Shown here: positions 10,497 to 38,301 of the stretch, one piece after another | How the letters are laid out: each line of letters starts with the position of its first letter | Position numbering within the stretch: position 1 is the stretch's first letter | IMG/VR virus record: IMGVR_UViG_2541047898_000007 | Reading direction: 5' to 3' (one strand) | Length of the DNA stretch: 41,901 bases | DNA from: a virus | Taxonomy: Duplodnaviria; Heunggongvirae; Uroviricota; Caudoviricetes | Program-made: the position numbers and the translations under genes | The notes under the pieces: generated by a model | Told to the model about the DNA's origin: nothing | What the model saw: the letters and a program-made list of their open reading frames with translations, nothing else | Databases searched by the model: none

Positions 10497-11222
10497 ATGG
10501 AAACCGTCATTCAAGCACTGGAAAAAATGGGCCGGGCGACATACCGCGAAGTGGCAGCCCGTCTGGATATCGAACCTGTGGAAGCACTGAACATGCTGCG
10601 CGAACAGCGCGAGCAGGGCATGTGTGATTTCTCCGACGGCGGCTGGTTTGTTGGCAGGCTGAAGGACCAGAAGAACACCCCTGCACCAGCTCCGGCTGTC
10701 GCCGCTAAAGCGCCATTGCGCGGCGAAGAGCCGAAGGAGATCAGCGTAGAGGGGATCACCCGCCTGCTGGCGCAACGCGGTGCCATGGATACTGTGGGCA
10801 TCGCCAGGGAATTTGGGCGTAACGCTCGCGGCATCACCGCATGGATGGGTTCACTGGCCCGCCAGGGCGTCGTGGTGAAGAACGGGCAGGGCAGGGGAGT
10901 AACCTGGTCATTGCCGGCACCCGCAGCACCAGCAGCAGGACCAGCACCAGCAGCAGAGGCAGTCAGCGTAGAGCATGAACTGACGAAGGCCGGCCCGGAG
11001 AAAGATATCGCGCAGATTGTCAGCGAAATCCCCGCGTTCACTGAAGGGTGCGCCGCCAGCATGTCCATTCCGGCGGCCCGGATGATCTCCCGCGAAATTC
11101 GTCGCACCAAAAACAGGCTGGCGCAGCTGACGAAACTGCAGGGCGCCGTGCGCACTTTTGCCCGTCATAAAAATCTCGTGCAACAGCTGGTGAACCAGGA
11201 GGCAACCAGTGAGCGAGATTAA
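10497..11222 (+). CDS. Hypothetical phage protein with Ala/Pro-rich linkers
   Basis: 241 aa; good RBS (caggag) upstream; PAPAPAVAA and PAPAAPAAGPAPAA low-complexity linkers; typical position after P in lambdoid prophages. Confidence 0.5.
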   Translation: METVIQALEKMGRATYREVAARLDIEPVEALNMLREQREQGMCDFSDGGWFVGRLKDQKNTPAPAPAVAAKAPLRGEEPKEISVEGITRLLAQRGAMDTVGIAREFGRNARGITAWMGSLARQGVVVKNGQGRGVTWSLPAPAAPAAGPAPAAEAVSVEHELTKAGPEKDIAQIVSEIPAFTEGCAASMSIPAARMISREIRRTKNRLAQLTKLQGAVRTFARHKNLVQQLVNQEATSERD

Positions 11223-11662: not shown

Positions 11663-11854
11663 ATGAACGGACAGATATCAATTGTTCGACCAGGAGCATG
11701 TGACGATCGCGAAATACGAATGATTATTCGTCTGGCGATGGGGAAAACAATAACAGCTCTCATTACTCCAGAAAATCTCGCATTAGCATTAACAGGAAAG
11801 TCAGACCTGCCAGTAGAGCTAAAGCTGCGAAATATTGAGATTAAAGTGAAATAG
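11663..11854 (+). CDS. Hypothetical small protein
   Basis: 63 aa ORF tightly packed between neighbours. Confidence 0.3.
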   Translation: MNGQISIVRPGACDDREIRMIIRLAMGKTITALITPENLALALTGKSDLPVELKLRNIEIKVK

Positions 11855-11856
11855 TT

Positions 11857-12525
11857 ATGAATACTCTTACCAAAGAATGGTTACAGAACACGATTACCAG
11901 CATTGAGTCAGCACGGGATGAAATACCGTTCGGACTCGATGAAGATCAAAACGACATGCTTACCGCATTAAAAATTGCACTGGCATCACTGGCAGCAGTA
12001 TCGGATGAACGAGCAGCCTATGAATTATTTATGGAGAAGCGTTTCGGGGAATCTGTAGATCGCCGTAGGGCAAAAAATGGCGATAGAGAATACATGGCAT
12101 GGGATATGGCGCTTGGCTGGATTATCTGGTGTCACCGCGCCGCCATGCTTCAGGCCGAACCTGTAAGTAATAGTGATGAGTTACCGCTGGACTATCTGCA
12201 AGGACACAAAGACGGCCTGGAGTGGGCTGCACAATTGGCAGAAGCCAATCATCCGCAAACAGGTGACTGGTTGTACGACGACCAAATCGATCTTGCCAGG
12301 GCGATTCGCAAAGGTCCGGATATGCCTACTGTTCAGGGTGGCAACTCTCCGGTGATTCCAGATGGTTGGGTGATGGTGCCGGTTGAGCCTACGATAGCCA
12401 TTCTAGACGAATTCGATTCGATTATTGATTACGGCGCTGAGGATTCTAAGGATGCGTGGAGTCGTCTTCTGGCAGCCGCTTGGATTAAATCGCTGCCAGC
12501 AGCGCCGCGGCAGGAGGTGAAGTGA
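11857..12525 (+). CDS. Hypothetical protein
   Basis: 222 aa; AT-richer than flanking replication genes; no recognisable motif. Confidence 0.4.
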   Translation: MNTLTKEWLQNTITSIESARDEIPFGLDEDQNDMLTALKIALASLAAVSDERAAYELFMEKRFGESVDRRRAKNGDREYMAWDMALGWIIWCHRAAMLQAEPVSNSDELPLDYLQGHKDGLEWAAQLAEANHPQTGDWLYDDQIDLARAIRKGPDMPTVQGGNSPVIPDGWVMVPVEPTIAILDEFDSIIDYGAEDSKDAWSRLLAAAWIKSLPAAPRQEVK

Positions 12526-12809
12526 TGGGCGCTTTCGCGAAATATACGATTATTGACTGGATTGTCTTCTTTCAGGTGGTGCTCATCTGGTTTTTTATGG
12601 CTTACAAGGCAGGGCAATGGATTTTCGGCATAGCACTTCGCAAAGGCTGGCGGTGGTTGAATCGTAAGGATGAGAAGTCGCTGGCTTTGGATTCCTTTTA
12701 CGATGCGTTTCGCCTTGGGGATATCCAGCCAGGGGAAGCTATTGTGATCACCACTGAAAGCGGTATGACTATTCGAATCCACAAGCCAAAAGGGGCGGAT
12801 AATGGCTAA
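12522..12809 (+). CDS. Small membrane protein (one or two predicted TM segments)
   Basis: 95 aa; hydrophobic stretch IIDWIVFFQVVLIWFFMAYKAGQWIFGIAL; 4 bp overlap with upstream gene. Confidence 0.4.
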   Translation: MMGAFAKYTIIDWIVFFQVVLIWFFMAYKAGQWIFGIALRKGWRWLNRKDEKSLALDSFYDAFRLGDIQPGEAIVITTESGMTIRIHKPKGADNG

Positions 12810-13140
12810 GACCGCAGCAGAACGCAAAGCTGCCCAGCGCGCCCGGCAAGCCGCTGCTGGTGGGCGTAAATTTGAGCTCATACTTGATACGCAGGAAATG
12901 GATATGCTGGAGCGCAATTGTGCATCACGCCGTCCGGGGCGAGCGCCGTATGAAATGAGCGAGTACATCGCGTTACTGATCCGTCAGGATGATGCCCGAG
13001 TTCGTGGTCGCATTAAGTCAATCAGTGCGAACCGCTGCGGTAAATGCGGTGATGTGCCGCCAGTTAAGTCGTGTCCATGCGCCGGTGATTCGCAATGCTG
13101 GGTTACGCGTGGCTGGCATGATGTGAAGTTAGTCGTGTGA
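12802..13140 (+). CDS. Hypothetical protein with basic N-terminus and Cys-rich C-terminus
   Basis: 112 aa; N-terminal AERKAAQRARQAA; C-terminal CGKCGDVPPVKSCPCAGDSQCW. Confidence 0.4.
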   Translation: MAKTAAERKAAQRARQAAAGGRKFELILDTQEMDMLERNCASRRPGRAPYEMSEYIALLIRQDDARVRGRIKSISANRCGKCGDVPPVKSCPCAGDSQCWVTRGWHDVKLVV

Positions 13141-13167
13141 CATGTCACAATATAATCAATAACATAC

Positions 13168-13190
13168 AAGCCTCTTCGGAGGCTTTTTTT
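13168..13190 (+). terminator. Rho-independent terminator
   Basis: aagcctcttcggaggctt hairpin followed by seven T. Confidence 0.6.
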
Positions 13191-13281
13191 GTCGGCGTTA
13201 AATTGCTTTTGCCTGTATGCCAAGCCATAATATCCCTGTCAGCCTGAGAAACTGACGACCATCTGCGCCAAGAAGAACATC

Positions 13282-13878
13282 ATGGCGCACTTACAACTAA
13301 TAAAGCAATCTTCAGGAATTCTGATCCCGGCCACGCCGGAGACCAGCGAATTACTGCAATCAAAAATTAAGCTCGGTGCCGTGCTGGAGGCCGACTTTAA
13401 ACAGGTACGCAATCCTGCGTTTCACCGCCGCTTTTTCGCTCTGCTGAATCTTGGTTTTGAATACTGGGAACCAACTGGCGGCGCTATCTCCTCCAATGAA
13501 CGCAAGCTGGTTACCGGCTATGCTAAATTCCTGGCTTCCTATGGTGGTAACGAAGGCGCACTGCTGGATGCGGCTGAGCAATACCTTGACCGCATTGCCG
13601 ATAAGCGTACTGGTAGCATCTGCGCCTGTAAGTCATTCGATGCATATCGTGCATGGGTCACTATTGAGTCCGGCCATTACGACGCCATTCAGCTGCCTGA
13701 CGGCACCCTCCGCAAACATCCCCGCAGTATCTCATTCGCAAATATGGATGAAACTGAGTTCCAGCAGCTGTACAAAGCCGCGCTCGATGTTCTGTGGCGA
13801 TGGATACTCTCCCGATCATTTCGCAGTTGTGAAGAGGCAGAAAACGCCGCCGCCCAGCTGATGAGCTTTGCGGGGTGA
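13282..13878 (+). CDS. DUF1367-like nin-region protein
   Basis: 198 aa; family assignment from memory of lambdoid nin-region proteins; synteny upstream of YbcO-like and rusA. Confidence 0.45.
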   Translation: MAHLQLIKQSSGILIPATPETSELLQSKIKLGAVLEADFKQVRNPAFHRRFFALLNLGFEYWEPTGGAISSNERKLVTGYAKFLASYGGNEGALLDAAEQYLDRIADKRTGSICACKSFDAYRAWVTIESGHYDAIQLPDGTLRKHPRSISFANMDETEFQQLYKAALDVLWRWILSRSFRSCEEAENAAAQLMSFAG

Positions 13879-14084
13879 TGGCGATGAAATTTTCCTGGTT
13901 CCACCATCACGAATGCACCACCGAACAGGCCGACGAGCTGGTGGAGAAATACCGGGCGCGCGGTGTAAAGACAGAGCGCAGCCTGAATCGCGACAACATC
14001 ACCTGGACCGTCAGCGCGCAATTGCCGGAAGGCGATAACGCGCCTCGCCCGAGCCGGGTATGGCAAAGCAAGGCGTGGGGGTGA
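13875..14084 (+). CDS. Hypothetical small protein
   Basis: 69 aa; 4 bp overlap with upstream stop. Confidence 0.3.
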   Translation: MMAMKFSWFHHHECTTEQADELVEKYRARGVKTERSLNRDNITWTVSAQLPEGDNAPRPSRVWQSKAWG

Positions 14085-14086
14085 GC

Positions 14087-14377
14087 ATGGCAAATTTACG
14101 CAAAGAGGCTCGTGGTCGTGATTGTCAGGTTCGAATTCCCGGCGTCTGCAACGGTAACCCGGAAACGTCTGTACTGGCGCACATTCGCCTGGCCGGGTTA
14201 TGTGGCACCGGAATCAAACCGCCTGATCTGATTGCCACCATTGCATGCTCTGCCTGTCACGACGAGATCGACCGCCGTACACATTTTGTCGATGCTGAGT
14301 ATGCTAAAGAATGCGCGCTGGAAGGTATGGCGAGAACGCAGGTTATCTGGCTGAAAGAGGGGGTAATCAAGGCGTGA
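14087..14377 (+). CDS. YbcO-like putative nuclease (DUF1364)
   Basis: Starts at the in-frame ATG 14087 within track ORF 14060-14377; [23 protein letters not shown]...[12 protein letters not shown] closely resembles E. coli DLP12 YbcO as I recall it; lies directly upstream of rusA. Confidence 0.6.
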
Positions 14378-14736
14378 ATACTTACAACATCACATTGCCC
14401 TGGCCGCCGAGCAATAACCGCTACTACCGCCATAATCGCGGGCGCACGCACATCAGCGCAGAAGGGCAGGCATACCGCGATAACGTCGCCCGAATCATTA
14501 AAAACGCAATGCTGGATATCGGTCTGGCTATGCCTGTGAAAATCCGCATTGAGTGCCACATGCCGGATCGCCGTCGCCGTGACCTGGATAATCTGCAAAA
14601 GGCCGCTTTTGACGCACTCACCAAAGCAGGTTTCTGGCTGGACGATGCTCAGGTCGTTGATTATCGCGTTGTGAAGATGCCCGTTACCAAAGGTGGAAAG
14701 CTGGAACTGACAATCACCGGGCTGGAGGCCGTATGA
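14374..14736 (+). CDS. rusA: Holliday junction resolvase RusA
   Basis: Starts at GTG 14374 within track ORF 14311-14736; [25 protein letters not shown]...[34 protein letters not shown] is near-identical to E. coli RusA. Confidence 0.85.
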
Positions 14737-21581: not shown

Positions 21582-23050
21582 TGGCACGAAACAAGCAATC
21601 CTCTCAGCGAACGGCACAGGCCACCGCTGACGGCTACGAGAACTTCGTCGCCCGCGTTGGGATGCAGACGCCTAACCAGCATTCAGCATCGACCTACCGG
21701 GCGAACTTCACCAGCCGCAACCGCATGCTGGTGGAATGGTCATATCGCGGTTCGTGGGTTATCGGTGAAGCGGTCGACGCTATCCCGGACGATATGACCC
21801 GAAAGGGCATTCGCATCACTTCGGAGATTGACGCCAAAGACCGTGGCACCCTCGAAGCGCAACTGGATGAGTTGCAGATCTGGGATGCGCTGAACGACGT
21901 GCTGAAATGGTCGCGCCTCTACGGCGGCGCGGTCGGCTTCATCATGATCGAGGGGCAAGCACCAATGACCCCGCTGCGACTCGAAACCATTGGCGAGGGC
22001 AAGTTTAAGGGCATTCTCCCGCTCGACCGCTGGATGATTAACCCGGTGCTGACACGCCGCATTAAAGAGATGGGGCCGGACCTCGGCAAGCCTGAGTTTT
22101 ACGACGTGGTGACCACCGCAACGGGCATTCCGGCCTGGCGCATCCATCACAGCCGCCTGATCCGCTTTGATGGCGTCACGCTGCCATTCCAGCAGAAGAT
22201 GACCGAAAACGAATGGGGAATGTCGGTTGTAGAGCGTATCTGGGATCGGCTTACTGCGTTCGATAGCGCTACTGTCGGCGCGGCGCAGCTGGTCTATAAA
22301 GCGCATCTGCGTACCTATAGCGTGGAGAAGTTGCGCGAGCTTATCGCGCTTGGAGGCCCGGCGTTCGAAGCGTTGCTGAAGAACATCGACCTGATCCGCC
22401 AGTTCCAGAGCAATGAAGGTATGACGCTCATGGACTCGCGGGATAAGTTCGAAACCCACCAGTACAGCTTTAGTGGTCTGGATGACATTCTTTCGCAGTT
22501 TGCTGAGCAGATCAGCGGTGCCGTTGGTATCCCGCTGGTACGCCTGTTCGGTCAATCCCCGAAAGGCTTCTCTACTGGTGATGCAGACCTCGCCAACTAT
22601 TACGACCGGGTGAGCTCATTGCAGGAGCGCCGCTTACGGCTGCCGATGCGCCGGATACTGGACATTATGCACCGCTCGGAACTCGGAAAGCCGCTGCCGG
22701 ACGATTTCACGTTTGAGTTTAACCCGCTATGGCAAATGTCAGACGTTGACCGATCAACGGTGGCCGTAAACACCACCAACGCGATCAGTACCGCGCTGGG
22801 CGACGGATTGATGACGCGTAAGGCGGCGATGACCGACCTGCGCGAAAACTCTGACGTCACCGGCATCGGGGCATCCATTACCGACGAGGATATCGAGAAT
22901 GCCGAAGACGAAGCGCCGCCAGGCATCGGCGAACTTGGCGACAAACCGCCAGAGCCGCCAGGCGGAGATCCGATATCGAACGAGCCTACGGCAGATAGCG
23001 CGGGCGGTCGGGGATATCGTAAATGGTCGCTACGATGGTTCAAACGATAG
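21581..23050 (+). CDS. Portal protein
   Basis: 489 aa; ATGA-type overlap with the terL stop; acidic C-terminus; canonical position. Confidence 0.7.
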   Translation: MARNKQSSQRTAQATADGYENFVARVGMQTPNQHSASTYRANFTSRNRMLVEWSYRGSWVIGEAVDAIPDDMTRKGIRITSEIDAKDRGTLEAQLDELQIWDALNDVLKWSRLYGGAVGFIMIEGQAPMTPLRLETIGEGKFKGILPLDRWMINPVLTRRIKEMGPDLGKPEFYDVVTTATGIPAWRIHHSRLIRFDGVTLPFQQKMTENEWGMSVVERIWDRLTAFDSATVGAAQLVYKAHLRTYSVEKLRELIALGGPAFEALLKNIDLIRQFQSNEGMTLMDSRDKFETHQYSFSGLDDILSQFAEQISGAVGIPLVRLFGQSPKGFSTGDADLANYYDRVSSLQERRLRLPMRRILDIMHRSELGKPLPDDFTFEFNPLWQMSDVDRSTVAVNTTNAISTALGDGLMTRKAAMTDLRENSDVTGIGASITDEDIENAEDEAPPGIGELGDKPPEPPGGDPISNEPTADSAGGRGYRKWSLRWFKR

Positions 23051-23672
23051 CGTCACCGAAATAATGGATGCGCTGGAGCGCTACAGCGAAATCATCACCC
23101 CCTGGGCGACTAAGGTTGCTGAGAGCTTCACCGCCGACATTGCGCGCCAGAATGAAAAGCAGTGGCGTCAGCACAGTCGGAACATCAGCGCAGAACTACG
23201 CAACATGGTCGACCGCGCCCCGGTAGGCCAGGTGATGAAATCCATCGTCGCCGAGCAAATTAAGTACATCAAATCTCTGCCTCTTGAGGCCGCCGATCGG
23301 GTGTATGACATTCAGAACAAGGCCATCGAGGCTGTAGTAACTGGTGGCCGCGCTGAGCCATTCGCGAAAGAGATAGCTGCTTCCGGTGACGTGTCACGCT
23401 CACGAGCGAACCTTATCTCCCGGACTGAGCTTGGGCGCGCAACCGGTGCATTGGATCAGGCGCGTGCGCTGTCAATCGGCTCGAATGGTTATATCTGGCG
23501 TACAGCCGAAGATGGCGACGTCCGGCATTCTCATCGAGAGATGGAAGGGAAGTTTGTCGAATGGGGCCGACCTCCAACGCTTGACGGCATGACCGGTCAC
23601 GCTGGCGAGCTCCCGAACTGCCGCTGTTACAAAGAAATCGTCTTCCCCAACCCTCATTCTTATCTCGCCTGA
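22899..23672 (+). CDS. Head morphogenesis protein (Mu F / SPP1 gp7-like)
   Basis: 257 aa; C-terminal YIWRTAEDGDVRHSHREMEGKFV...CRCY resembles the Mu F family; overlaps the portal 3' end by about 150 nt, so the true start may be an internal ATG. Confidence 0.65.
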   Translation: MPKTKRRQASANLATNRQSRQAEIRYRTSLRQIARAVGDIVNGRYDGSNDSVTEIMDALERYSEIITPWATKVAESFTADIARQNEKQWRQHSRNISAELRNMVDRAPVGQVMKSIVAEQIKYIKSLPLEAADRVYDIQNKAIEAVVTGGRAEPFAKEIAASGDVSRSRANLISRTELGRATGALDQARALSIGSNGYIWRTAEDGDVRHSHREMEGKFVEWGRPPTLDGMTGHAGELPNCRCYKEIVFPNPHSYLA

Positions 23673-23686
23673 ATCGCAGGTAAACC

Positions 23687-24919
23687 ATGAAATATTTTTT
23701 CAATACCCGGCTGGGGGAAACCCGTTATCAGCTGGCTGACGGCTCGCTGCTGTGCAAAGACGTGCCGATAGGTCGAACGGGTAAGCAGCTTTACGGCGCT
23801 GCCGATCTGCCAAACCTCAAACCCGACAAGCTCGGCGAGATAGTCGTAACGCGCTCTCCTGATCAGGTATTCCATCCGGCCACGCTCGCCTCATTCGAAG
23901 GGATGAGCATCACGATCCTGCATCCTGAAGATGAAAACGGGAATGTGCGGCTGGTCAACCCCGAGAACTGGAAAGAGCTTGCGGTCGGGCATCTTCAGAA
24001 CGTTCGGCGCGGGACTGGTGATCAGTCTGATTTGATGCTGGCTGACCTTATCGTCAAAGACGAAAGCGCCATTCAGCTGATCGAAGATGGTCTGCGCGAA
24101 GTGTCGTGCGGCTATGACGCTGAGTACGAGCAGACCGAACCCGGAAAAGCCGAGCAGGTCGATATTACCGGAAACCATGTGGCTCTTGTCCCTAAAGGCA
24201 GAGCCGGAAATCGTTGTGCAATTGGAGACAGAGACACAATGGCAAATCAAAAGAAAAGCTGGTGGACCCGCATGCGCACGGCCATCAAAACGGGTGATGC
24301 TGACACCATGAACGAACTGCTGGACTCTGCGCCAGCGGCGGTAACGGGCGATGAAGGGGATCTGCCGAGCGGCGTTAACCTCAACATTAATCTTTCACCG
24401 CAACAACCATTGCCGGACAAAAAGCCGGAAATGGGCGGAGAGCCAACCGGCGACGGCGAGGACGATATCAAAACCTTGCTCAAAGCCCTGCTGGCTAAGC
24501 TGGAAGGTACTGCAACGGGCGATAACGACGATAAGCCTGACGGCAAAGATAACAAAGACCCTACCGGCGAGGGTGAGGACGACGAAGAGGAAACCACGAT
24601 TACCGGTGACGCTGCTTATCGTGCCGAAGTTATCGTTCCGGGTATCGATCTGAGCCGTAAGGTGAAACCGACCGCGTTCAAACGTGATGTGCTGTCCGCC
24701 GCTGACAAAACACTGGTTCGCCAGGTTGTCGGTGATGCAGATATCCGCAAATTGCCCAAGCAATCGGTCGATATGGCGTTTAACGCCGTGTCTGAGATTG
24801 CCAAAGGGCGAAACACCCGCAGCACCACGGGCGATGCACAACGTCCAAATATGGGCATGACCAGCATCGCTTCCCTGAACAAACAAAACGCCGACTTCTG
24901 GTCTAACCGCAAAGGATAA
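23687..24919 (+). CDS. DUF2213-like putative scaffolding / prohead core protein
   Basis: 410 aa; N-terminal domain followed by a long acidic, Gly/Asp/Glu-rich low-complexity region; located between head morphogenesis and capsid genes. Confidence 0.45.
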   Translation: MKYFFNTRLGETRYQLADGSLLCKDVPIGRTGKQLYGAADLPNLKPDKLGEIVVTRSPDQVFHPATLASFEGMSITILHPEDENGNVRLVNPENWKELAVGHLQNVRRGTGDQSDLMLADLIVKDESAIQLIEDGLREVSCGYDAEYEQTEPGKAEQVDITGNHVALVPKGRAGNRCAIGDRDTMANQKKSWWTRMRTAIKTGDADTMNELLDSAPAAVTGDEGDLPSGVNLNINLSPQQPLPDKKPEMGGEPTGDGEDDIKTLLKALLAKLEGTATGDNDDKPDGKDNKDPTGEGEDDEEETTITGDAAYRAEVIVPGIDLSRKVKPTAFKRDVLSAADKTLVRQVVGDADIRKLPKQSVDMAFNAVSEIAKGRNTRSTTGDAQRPNMGMTSIASLNKQNADFWSNRKG

Positions 24920-24923
24920 TCCA

Positions 24924-25427
24924 ATGACTGCATATTTGTACCGGATGCCTGTTGGCATTGCCGGGGCTATCTCTCGCCCGCAGGATTTAACCGTCGAGCC
25001 GGTGATCCTTAAATCCGCTAACGCCTTCGCTGCCTATGGTCTGGCTGGCAAATACGACGCTGACGGCTTTTTTGTGCCGCTGGCGGACGGTGACACCTCC
25101 GACAAAGTGAAGGGGATCTACGTTCGTCCGTATCCGACCACATCACAGCCGGACATGGTTCGCCAGGTGGGGACAGATAAGAACTTCCCGGGCGATGCAA
25201 TGAAGCGCGGTTACATGACCGTTAACCTTGGTTCTGACTTTGATGCCAGCACCATCAAAAAAGGTGACCCGGTATACGTTGTTGTCTCCACTGATGAATC
25301 TATTAAAGTGCCGCTGGGTGGTTTCTGCTCTTCAAGCGTGGAAGGGAAAACTGTCGTACTCGCGAATGCTGAATTTACTGGTGCCGGTGACGCTAACGGT
25401 AATGCAGAAATCTCCTGGAAGATTTAA
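24924..25427 (+). CDS. Hypothetical head protein (possible decoration protein)
   Basis: 167 aa; immediately upstream of the major capsid gene. Confidence 0.35.
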   Translation: MTAYLYRMPVGIAGAISRPQDLTVEPVILKSANAFAAYGLAGKYDADGFFVPLADGDTSDKVKGIYVRPYPTTSQPDMVRQVGTDKNFPGDAMKRGYMTVNLGSDFDASTIKKGDPVYVVVSTDESIKVPLGGFCSSSVEGKTVVLANAEFTGAGDANGNAEISWKI

Positions 25428-25438
25428 GGAACAGACAA

Positions 25439-26380
25439 ATGATTACTTTTGATCAGGCAACCGTAGATAGCTCCGGTGCCTTTCTCATCGGGGAGCTGGA
25501 GCGACTCGACCAGACGCTGAACCTGCCTCTGGTGGGGTACACCTGGACCCGAGATATTCAACTGCGTGAAGACGTGTCTATCGCAGATGACATTTCCAGC
25601 TGGACGAATACCAGCTTCGCCGCTGCGGGTACTGGTGCAAATCCGAATGGTAAAAACTGGGTAGGCAAAGACTCCACCGCTATTGCTGGCGTGAACGTGG
25701 ATATCAGCAAAGACGGCAATCCACTGAACCTCTGGGGTATGGAACTGGGCTGGACCGTTGTAGAGCTGGCAGCTGCTCAGCAGGTAGGCCGCCCGATTGA
25801 TACCCAGAAGTACGACGGGATGCAGCTCAAATGGCAGATGGACAACGACGAGCAGGTTTACATCGGTGATGACGCACTCGGCCTGAAAGGTCTGGCAAAC
25901 CTCGTCGGTGTGACGCTGAACAACGCGCCGAAGACCTGGGCGAACTCAACCAACGACGAGATCCTCGATAGCGTGAACAGCATTCTGTCTAATGCCTGGG
26001 CAGCATCCGGTTATTCCATCGTGCCTTCTGATCTGCGCATTCCGCCAGAGCAGTATTCACTGCTGGCGAGCCGTAAGGTTTCCGAAGCGGGTAACCAGTC
26101 ACTGCTGACCTATCTGGCTGTGAACACTATCGCTTTCCACCAGAACGGCGTTCCGCTTGAAATCAAAGCGGTCAAATGGCTGAAAGGGCGTGGGGTTGGC
26201 GGTAAAGACCGTATGATCGCCTACACCAACGACAAGAAATACGTGCGCTATCCGCTGGTGCCGTTGCAGAGCGTTCCTGTCCAGTATCGCGGTCTGTATC
26301 AGATTGCGACCTACTACGGCAAGCTCGGTGCGGTTGAGCCAGTGTACAAAGAAACCCTGTCCTACGTGGACGGTATCTGA
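25439..26380 (+). CDS. Major capsid protein (DUF2184-like)
   Basis: 313 aa; position; strong stem-loop just downstream. Confidence 0.65.
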   Translation: MITFDQATVDSSGAFLIGELERLDQTLNLPLVGYTWTRDIQLREDVSIADDISSWTNTSFAAAGTGANPNGKNWVGKDSTAIAGVNVDISKDGNPLNLWGMELGWTVVELAAAQQVGRPIDTQKYDGMQLKWQMDNDEQVYIGDDALGLKGLANLVGVTLNNAPKTWANSTNDEILDSVNSILSNAWAASGYSIVPSDLRIPPEQYSLLASRKVSEAGNQSLLTYLAVNTIAFHQNGVPLEIKAVKWLKGRGVGGKDRMIAYTNDKKYVRYPLVPLQSVPVQYRGLYQIATYYGKLGAVEPVYKETLSYVDGI

Positions 26381-26421
26381 TAACCAGAACGGCCCCGAAA
26401 GGGGCCAGAAGGGAACTGAAA

Positions 26422-26811
26422 ATGGCGAAAGAAAAGCTGGTTACCATCCATGTTCACACCCCGTTTACGCTGACGCTCGGCGATCAGTCAAAAAGGGAGT
26501 TTGGCCGGGGACGGCATAACGTACCGGAAGAGGTCGCGTCGCACTGGTTCACCCAGGCGCACTCCGAGCTTTCCGAAAGCGTGATTAGCGACACCGATGA
26601 TCTGCAACCCATTATCGACAGCCTGCAAGCTCAGATTGCCGACAAAGATAAGCAGATTATCGATAAAGATCAGTTGATTGCCGATCTGCGAGAAGCGCTG
26701 CTCAAGCTGCAAGAGCAGAACGACAGCCTGCAAGCGCAGATTGCTGCCGCCCAGACTGGCGGTAATGGGGCGAAAGATGCCAAAGAATCAAAGCCTGCCA
26801 ACAGTAAGTGA
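26422..26811 (+). CDS. Hypothetical coiled-coil protein
   Basis: 129 aa; heptad-like [44 protein letters not shown]. Confidence 0.4.
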
Positions 26812-37101: not shown

Positions 37102-38301
37102 ATGGCTTTGAACCTCGACACGCTGGGGCTATCGGCAACGGTAACCGCCCAGGGGATTAGTGCGCCTGATTACCAGACAATCCTTGATACACTGACCAGC
37201 TATTTCAGGCAGATTTACGGTAGTGATGCCTACCTCGAACCAGACAGCAAAGATGGGCAAATGGTCGCGCTGGTGGCTCTTGCGGTGCATGACGCTAACA
37301 ATACCGCTATCGAGATCTACAACTCTTTTTCACCGACGACAGCGCAGGCCGCAGCGCTTAGCAACAATGTGAAAATTAACGGGATCACGCGAAAAGTAGC
37401 GACAAACTCTACTGCTGACCTTCTGTTAACCGGTACGGCAGGCACGACTATCACGAATGGCTCCGCACGGGATAAAAACGGCATTATCTGGAATTTTCCA
37501 GCGAGTGTGGCGATCGGCGTTGATGGTACTGTGCTGGTGACGGCCACATGTGCGAATAGCGGTTCGGTTGCGGCGCTGGCCGGGACTATTACCACTATCA
37601 ACACCCCGACCCGAGGTTGGGTGTCGGTAACCAATCCAGTTGCGGCTACTGTCGGTTCACCAGCCGAAACCGACGCAGAGCTGCGCATTCGGCAGGGGCA
37701 AAGCGTCGCGCTACCATCGATCACACCGTTTGAAGGTGTCGACGGTGCTATCGCTAATGTTGCTGGCGTGACACGTCACAAACTATATGAGAACGACACT
37801 GGGGCAACCGACAGCAACGGGCTGCCGCCACACTCTATTTCCGCCATCGTCGATGGAGGGGATGTTACCGAGATAGCCCAAACAATCCGGGGGAATAAAG
37901 GGCAGGGAACCGCAACTTACGGTAAAACTTCTGTCACGGTGCCGGATACTTACGGTAATCCACACGTCATCAGTTTTTCGCGCTCTACCGATGTGCCAAT
38001 TTTCGTAGCCATTACCCTGAAAGTTTTTACCGGCTATACCTCTCAAATCGGCGAGCAGATTAAACAGGCTGTTGCCGATTATATAAATGGCCTAACAATT
38101 GGCGACGACGTTCTGCTGAGCCGTATTTATTCCCCGGCAAACCTCGGCGTTGTGAGCGGCGGGAATGCCCGCTATTACGATATTACCGACCTGCTGATCG
38201 GTAAGTCGTCTGGCAGCGTATCGGCATCAAACATTGATATTGCCTATGATGCTTCTGCGTCCTGTAGCACCGCGAATATCAGTATCACGGTGACCTCATG
38301 A
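37102..38301 (+). CDS. Baseplate J-like protein (Mu gp47-like)
   Basis: 399 aa; position and size. Confidence 0.6.
   Translation: MALNLDTLGLSATVTAQGISAPDYQTILDTLTSYFRQIYGSDAYLEPDSKDGQMVALVALAVHDANNTAIEIYNSFSPTTAQAAALSNNVKINGITRKVATNSTADLLLTGTAGTTITNGSARDKNGIIWNFPASVAIGVDGTVLVTATCANSGSVAALAGTITTINTPTRGWVSVTNPVAATVGSPAETDAELRIRQGQSVALPSITPFEGVDGAIANVAGVTRHKLYENDTGATDSNGLPPHSISAIVDGGDVTEIAQTIRGNKGQGTATYGKTSVTVPDTYGNPHVISFSRSTDVPIFVAITLKVFTGYTSQIGEQIKQAVADYINGLTIGDDVLLSRIYSPANLGVVSGGNARYYDITDLLIGKSSGSVSASNIDIAYDASASCSTANISITVTS

Follow-up and report, generated by a model that had tools for sequence, protein, structure and literature searches.

We analysed a stretch of DNA of 41,901 nucleotides (nt) (IMG/VR record IMGVR_UViG_2541047898_000007; the whole stretch is called the window below), which is a lambdoid Escherichia coli prophage, and within it a block of four small open reading frames (ORFs) that ends at an intrinsic terminator. 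The last gene of the block (12802..13140, + strand) encodes a protein of 112 amino acids (aa) with a confidently modelled ribbon-helix-helix (RHH) fold and a conserved four-Cys domain. The stop codon of this gene falls within a perfect 12-bp palindrome, GTGACATGTCAC (13137-13148), of the type GTGAC-NN-GTCAC, 19 nt before the terminator, and the palindrome is its candidate binding site. The gene and the palindrome appear, from comparison across phages, to form an undescribed protein-site pair; a literature search for the palindrome in phages returned nothing relevant, within the literature searchable here. We tentatively suggest that the protein acts on transcription at operon ends.

The 112-aa protein family

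The 112-aa protein belongs to phrog_536. Its family, small but found widely, falls into 697 clusters at 90% identity; at 50% identity it has 190 representatives among 1.84 billion proteins, and at least 398 IMG/VR stretches carry it. Members include epsilon15 gp49, N15 gp46, phiKO2 gp45, ZF40 gp22 and proteins of Yersinia and Vibrio phages. The four named proteins are truly homologous, at 35-82% identity, and share the architecture; a palindrome stands at the stop codon of each of their genes, as here; the N15-type proteins differ in their beta-strand sequence and in having sites with a CA/TG centre.

In a diverse alignment of the family, a basic helix at the N-terminus (ERKxxQRxR) is followed by a short strand, by two helices (PYxxxEYIxxLIRxD) and by a longer helix, and then by a cluster of Cys residues with the pattern CxxC, 8-10 residues, C, about 7 residues, C. 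Family-wide, C79 and C82 do not vary and C99 hardly does; in close relatives C79, C82, C91, C93 and C99 are all invariant, which bears out the basic N-terminus and Cys-rich C-terminus that a preliminary description of this DNA had noticed. The AlphaFold2 model based on the diverse alignment contains the beta-strand, helix, helix core fold of the RHH superfamily. It replaced a first model from an alignment in which all sequences were at least 78% identical, which reached a predicted local distance difference test score (pLDDT) of 67 and gave no Foldseek match. Judged from the model and the conserved Cys residues, the gene probably encodes a zinc-containing DNA-binding protein.

The family has no counterpart in Pfam or NCBIfam. 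Two other assignments of the Cys region were rejected: the C4 zinc finger of DksA/TraR (CxxC-x17-CxxC, beside a coiled coil whose tip is acidic), which gave weak PDB profile matches (TraR, YbiI), no structural match and no Pfam match, and has a Cys pattern other than the one found here; and the Pfam family Fer4_20 (E 0.046), a match judged to be noise from the Cys pattern.

The palindrome and its association with the gene

Exact GTGACNNGTCAC was detected between -40 and +60 nt relative to the stop codon at 43 of the 66 homologous loci, against a background of 0.004 per 100 nt for exact GTGAC-NN-GTCAC. Its offset from the stop varies (-21, -18, -4, +2, +4, +6 and +56), even among proteins that are 40% identical, so that the conserved thing is the DNA motif and not the protein C-terminus. 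Because the genes flanking the site vary widely, the RHH gene is the only gene always linked to it.

The association extends to whole genomes. Epsilon15, N15, ZF40, Omnitron, MStein, 48ST307 and the window hold exactly three exact sites each and Kp4865-1 holds four, whereas chance would give about 0.04 copies per genome, as estimated from the length of the motif and the frequency of half-sites. In eight temperate phages that lack the gene the exact copies number 0, 0, 0, 0, 0, 0, 1 and 1, with half-site counts similar to those of the gene carriers. In a separate, independent set of IMG/VR loci, 70 exact sites beside the stop and 89 elsewhere were counted at the 96 loci with the gene, and no exact site was found in the 64 loci (686 kb) without it.

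The central dinucleotide of the palindrome co-varies with the beta-strand of the protein: K-x-E-L-x-L-D goes with AT, INEIRARLE (Yersinia) with GC and TTRRDWVLE (N15-like) with CA/TG. This match, seen in three clades, is suggestive and would be expected if an RHH ribbon reads the palindrome centre. We infer that the 112-aa protein binds GTGAC-NN-GTCAC, presumably, like other RHH proteins, as a dimer that would contact the DNA through its paired beta-ribbon.

Two further exact copies were detected in the window by motif scan. The second, GTGACGTGTCAC (23386..23397), lies within a head-morphogenesis gene and is possibly incidental; the third, GTGACACGTCAC (37768..37779), lies within a baseplate-region gene and its significance is uncertain. 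Both have GT/AC centres and are a single 12-mer read on opposite strands. Phage Omnitron, which has the 112-aa gene, keeps the copy at 37768 intact, and SEN34 and yong1, which are without the gene, carry it with one mismatch.

The N15-like linear-plasmid prophages examined (N15 itself, with sites at 28550, 33237 and 39269, and loci L075 and L076) hold three CA/TG-centre copies each: at the gp46 stop, within repA, and between the end of the repA operon and a terminator.

Position of the sites relative to operon ends and terminators

The contexts of 167 distinct sites were compared with random positions and random non-coding positions. Sites lie outside long ORFs in 69% of cases (16% for random positions) and have a terminator-like hairpin within 60 nt in 46% (2.8% for random and 8.6% for random non-coding positions), and the hairpin begins a median of 4 nt from the site. 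All three epsilon15 sites are at gene ends beside annotated terminators, and in Uetakevirus-like contigs the order is site, terminator, terS, terL, terminator, site.

In the window, a pattern scan places the terminator at 13168..13192 (+ strand), in the position of lambda tR2, with the 7-bp stem and TTCG loop AAGCCTC-TTCG-GAGGCTT at 13168-13185 and then a T-run. The same terminator stands 3' of the 112-aa homologue at Pantoea and Apirhabdus loci.

In epsilon15-like (Uetakevirus) genomes (epsilon15 itself, with sites at 2142, 19517 and 39612, loci L003-L014 and many of L088-L146), two palindromes bracket terS-terL, each just outside a terminator hairpin, and a third palindrome is found at the end of the late structural operon. 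The palindrome was considered as the operator of the epsilon15 repressor and rejected, as the epsilon15 operators differ (ATTACC-N5-GGTAAT).

SOS-type LexA boxes (TACTGT-N8-ACAGTA) were detected directly downstream of the palindrome at four loci (L003, L005, L010 and L013) and directly downstream of the stop at four others (L017, L018, L020 and L024). At the first four, a TTGACT-17-TATACT promoter begins 7 nt past the palindrome, and the module next to the site is predicted to be LexA-controlled in some phages.

Proposed mechanism and alternative explanations

The explanation that we favour, at a probability of about 0.45, is that the 112-aa protein binds palindromes at operon ends and modulates transcription across terminators. 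It is preferred because the sites are mostly in non-coding DNA beside terminator hairpins. The block is at the end of the early rightward operon, near cro, cII, O and P, and transcription of this operon from a pR-type promoter is assumed on the model of lambda. The protein would act as an RHH dimer with a basic N-terminal helix, and its putative zinc-binding C-terminal domain would stabilise or oligomerise the dimer. As the protein accumulates, it would fill the sites at operon ends, and the occupied sites would limit or modulate transcription across those boundaries as a roadblock or insulator. In this prophage such a boundary would lead into the nin/Q genes, and in epsilon15-like phages it would surround the terminase genes.

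Several observations weigh against this proposal. About a third of the 66 loci are without a site within 100 nt of the stop, and the AT centre typical of the family is found in the window at the stop-codon site only. The copy at 23386 is also present in phages yong1 and SEN34, both without the 112-aa gene, and may be ordinary conserved coding sequence and hence incidental. In most cases the hairpins score as bidirectional and leave it ambiguous whether site or terminator comes first (15 sites upstream only, 4 downstream only, 57 both), and a strict roadblock fits poorly with the sites that fall inside essential genes (repA of N15, the cII-like gene of ZF40 and, in the window, the head and baseplate genes). 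Neither the site contexts nor the three co-varying clades are phylogenetically independent. Finally, no RHH model of Pfam is significant: among 63 family members the best match is RHH_5 with E 0.013 (two members), RepB-RCR_reg gives E 0.028 in one of the 63, and the 112-aa protein of the window has no Pfam match.

Other explanations of the same sites were weighed. The protein could work as an architectural factor in the manner of MatP, bridging a few sites and so looping or condensing phage DNA (enclosing terS-terL in epsilon15-like phages), or it could interfere with host MatP/matS or with SMC (structural maintenance of chromosomes) complexes; we consider this unlikely. That it is a classical transcription factor, repressing or activating a promoter beside the site, for instance that of the downstream module, is suggested by the PHROGs label of the family ("transcriptional regulator"), by the several loci where the site stands 7 nt upstream of the promoter carrying a LexA box, and by a weak -35-like hexamer that the window palindrome overlaps. 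The putative promoter in the window, however, runs straight into the terminator, promoters next to sites are not conserved across loci, and sites abut terminator hairpins far more than chance would give, which leaves a promoter-bound regulator quite improbable. A different view is that the protein does not bind the palindrome, which would instead accompany the gene, often along with the hairpin, as a module-boundary or recombination element or a small mobile intergenic one. It is found at mosaic junctions beside hairpins, it holds TGA and ATG and can thereby serve as a stop-start junction (at locus L044 the ATG may start the next gene), and one copy is kept in coding sequence of phages without the gene. 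Against such an unbound element, for which we see little room, stand the absence of the motif from the 686 kb of related mosaic phage DNA without the gene, the restriction of unlinked copies to gene-carrying genomes, and the tracking of the protein's beta-strand sequence by the centre dinucleotide.

The preliminary description had read the gene just upstream, which encodes the small membrane protein DUF4752, together with the 112-aa gene as a plausible toxin and regulator or an exclusion module. A toxin-antitoxin, toxin-regulator or exclusion pair would agree with the 8-nt overlap of the two genes, with the small membrane protein, and with the RHH antitoxins MazE7, TacA and ParD among the best structural matches of the 112-aa model. 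This reading is largely refuted by the gene distribution, and we regard it as highly improbable. DUF4752, searched with a hidden Markov model, occurs within 4 kb of a 112-aa homologue at 0 of 65 loci from other Enterobacterales species. In E. coli the two genes are close together in 96 of the 1045 genomes carrying either (about 9%), often with another gene between them. Among viral contigs, DUF4752 is within 10 kb at 14 of the 80 loci found from the 112-aa protein, and the 112-aa gene at 16 of the 80 found from DUF4752, both IMG/VR sets being biased towards relatives of the window. The gene upstream of the 112-aa family varies (DNA methyltransferases, primases, many unrelated small proteins), and the 8-nt overlap is often kept with these differing genes. 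A conserved adjacent toxin partner, as looked for in a type II toxin-antitoxin system, is absent, since neighbours on both sides vary and DUF4752 co-occurs rarely. RHH antitoxins are normally encoded before their toxin, so the gene order here is unusual; the 112-aa C-terminus is a folded Cys4 domain in the model and not a disordered toxin-binding tail; and PADLOC gave no defence-model match for either protein, nor for the other two of the block (E up to 1).

Large DNA methyltransferase genes abut or overlap the start of the 112-aa family gene in several unrelated phages (loci L009, L015 and L023, and ZF40, 12444-14597). In three Xenorhabdus prophages (L036, L050 and L053), a 92-aa protein (MIKSFKHKGLK...), which we take to resemble HigB/RelE-type toxins, is encoded about 70 nt downstream of the family gene.

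Comparison with MatP/matS and other ribbon-helix-helix proteins

The target of MatP, matS, has the 13-bp consensus GTGACRNYGTCAC (PMC6907758). The half-sites of the phage palindrome equal those of matS, and MatP has an RHH fold as well. The spacers differ, at 2 bp in the phage palindrome (12-bp site) and 3 bp in matS (13-bp site); no site with a 3-bp spacer was detected in the eight phage genomes, whose palindromes do not count as matS sites. MatP has a four-helix bundle and a coiled coil, whereas the 112-aa protein is modelled with one N-terminal helix and a Cys4 C-terminal domain. BLASTP found no homology to MatP, and the hhalign P of 0.12-0.16 was not significant. The system described here also differs in being phage-encoded, with about three sites per genome of about 40 kb, often beside terminators. 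On these comparisons, the 112-aa protein and its palindrome are best described as resembling MatP/matS and not as belonging to it.

A 13-mer that matches the matS consensus, GTGACGGTGTCAC, is located at 2090-2102 within the recT-like gene of the prophage, where about 0.01 is estimated by chance per window; the recT/recE stretch of the K-12 Rac prophage has no 13-mer of the matS type.

The RHH regulators and antitoxins Arc, Mnt, CopG, MetJ, NikR, ParD, MazE and TacA share with the 112-aa protein the beta-alpha-alpha core predicted for it and bind DNA targets that are symmetric, as its candidate site is, and NikR likewise joins an RHH domain to a metal-binding C-terminal domain. The 112-aa protein differs from them in that its candidate operator is at the 3' end of the gene and not at the promoter, in lacking a conserved toxin partner, and in its C-terminus, a short Cys4 knuckle with no structural match in PDB.

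The prophage and the four-gene block

The window is 100% identical to a prophage in E. coli strain HH107, with the integration site beside kch, and the identical stretch is also present as IMG/VR contig UViG_2565956724_000005. On the + strand the order is cro, cII, O, P, the gene for a DUF1627 protein, the gene for an Ead/Ea22-like protein (Pfam PF13935, E 4.4e-18), the four-ORF block and the terminator; 3' of it follow a DUF1367 gene (at 13282), other nin-type genes, Q, the lysis genes and the structural genes. PHROGs puts the DUF1367 protein in the NinB/Orf family, and the block sits where lambda has ren and tR2. The DUF1627 protein after P (10497-11222, phrog_630) matches weakly (E 0.0012) the PHROG "Ren-like exclusion protein" phrog_142, a match that fits its ren-like position. 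RefSeq marks the portal gene of the prophage (about 22401-23924 in the window; 25193-26716 in locus L001) as an incomplete pseudogene, and the prophage may be defective.

The four ORFs, all on the + strand and of 63, 222, 95 and 112 aa, were found as the preliminary description gives them, between the Ea22-like gene and the strong terminator with its 7-bp stem and T-run. The RefSeq annotation of HH107 calls the same four coding sequences, the third beginning at ATG 12525 (94 aa). The junctions are, in order, a 1-nt gap, a 2-nt gap, a 1-nt overlap (TGATG) and an 8-nt overlap, and this tight packing is consistent with the translational coupling proposed earlier. As to the earlier statement that no function is recognisable, no family with a tested function was matched, but each of the four proteins falls in a recognised family (phrog_1222; phrog_60/660 with a YfdT-like module; DUF4752; phrog_536). 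NCBIfam and a sequence search of the solved structures in PDB gave no match for any of the four, and an Rfam scan of the region gave nothing above noise, pointing to no non-coding RNA.

The description of the region as mosaic and accessory holds: of 5426 complete E. coli genomes one has the exact four-gene arrangement, and recombination moves the blocks separately. Comparison with related prophages, which had been proposed as a check, gave no intact module but genes shuffled separately. The block is thus an ordinary mosaic of four independently assorting accessory genes and not one module.

The first three genes of the block

The 63-aa protein (11663..11854, + strand) is a full-length match to phrog_1222 (E 1.5e-40), with no match in Pfam, NCBIfam or PADLOC. 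Its family occurs in 176 phage records, including Shiga toxin (Stx) phages, HK633 and virulent Dhillonvirus phages. Homologues at 62-65% identity were detected in virulent Dhillonvirus siphophages and in one 134-kb myovirus, which appears an unusually broad distribution for an "ea-type" gene.

The 222-aa protein (11857..12525, + strand) is a mosaic with more than 8000 related clusters. Over its N-terminal 77% it shares 95-97% identity with proteins whose last domain is DUF551, and its C-terminus is a different module; the protein has no Pfam match and hence no DUF551 domain (PF04448). PHROG matches are piecewise (phrog_60, phrog_660 and phrog_12449). Residues 37-97 are 74% identical to K-12 YfdT of the cryptic prophage CPS-53 (E 1e-30), from which the 222-aa protein differs by extra N- and C-terminal modules, and no similarity to YfdS was found. 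When yfdQ and yfdR are present in multicopy along with yfdS or yfdT, initiation at oriC is inhibited (PMC4776307). In the gene annotation of the window no homologue of yfdQ or yfdR was noticed, though no search was aimed at them.

The third gene (12525..12809, + strand; 94 aa from the ATG, 95 aa from GTG 12522) encodes a member of Pfam DUF4752 (PF15944; 97.5 bits, where the gathering threshold is 27, over profile positions 2-82 of 84), which also matches phrog_667. All DUF4752 homologues start at the ATG equivalent to 12525. The protein has a single strongly hydrophobic segment (19-residue Kyte-Doolittle maximum of 2.09, from residue 8) followed by the basic stretch RKGWRWLNRKDEK, and both are kept in 22 homologues, which agrees with the earlier impression of a small membrane protein and suggests a membrane anchor with the N-terminus out and the C-terminus in. 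Elsewhere the DUF4752 gene lies in phage "ea" regions beside Ea22, DUF551 or ASCH genes; a literature search on DUF4752 found nothing relevant.

By family membership, these three proteins appear to be drawn from the gene pool of the lambdoid/P22-like "ea" regions. The P22 and lambdoid "ea" genes (Ead/Ea22, EaA, EaF, HK620 hkaE-G) belong to the same families, and all are mosaic and outside the replication, lysis and structural modules. The difference is in location, as the genes described here lie between P and the nin genes of the rightward operon, whereas the "ea" regions are in the leftward early operon.

Significance

The four-gene block itself is ordinary, and its value is in the 112-aa gene. 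A widespread phage family that includes N15 and epsilon15 proteins is now paired with a precise candidate DNA target, so that what the family does can be tested directly. If the sites act at terminators, temperate phages would have in them a new means of setting operon boundaries or of timing the early-to-late switch. Were the resemblance to matS functional, phage biology would be connected with the organisation of the host chromosome.

As a long shot, the 112-aa family may be a phage counterpart of MatP that marks matS-like palindromes, bridging them or recruiting or excluding host organisers (SMC complexes of the MukBEF type, a divisome link), or a new class of protein-dependent operon boundary beside intrinsic terminators. 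Either would, if true, be an undescribed layer of genome organisation or regulation common to Uetakevirus, N15-like and lambdoid phages of Enterobacterales.

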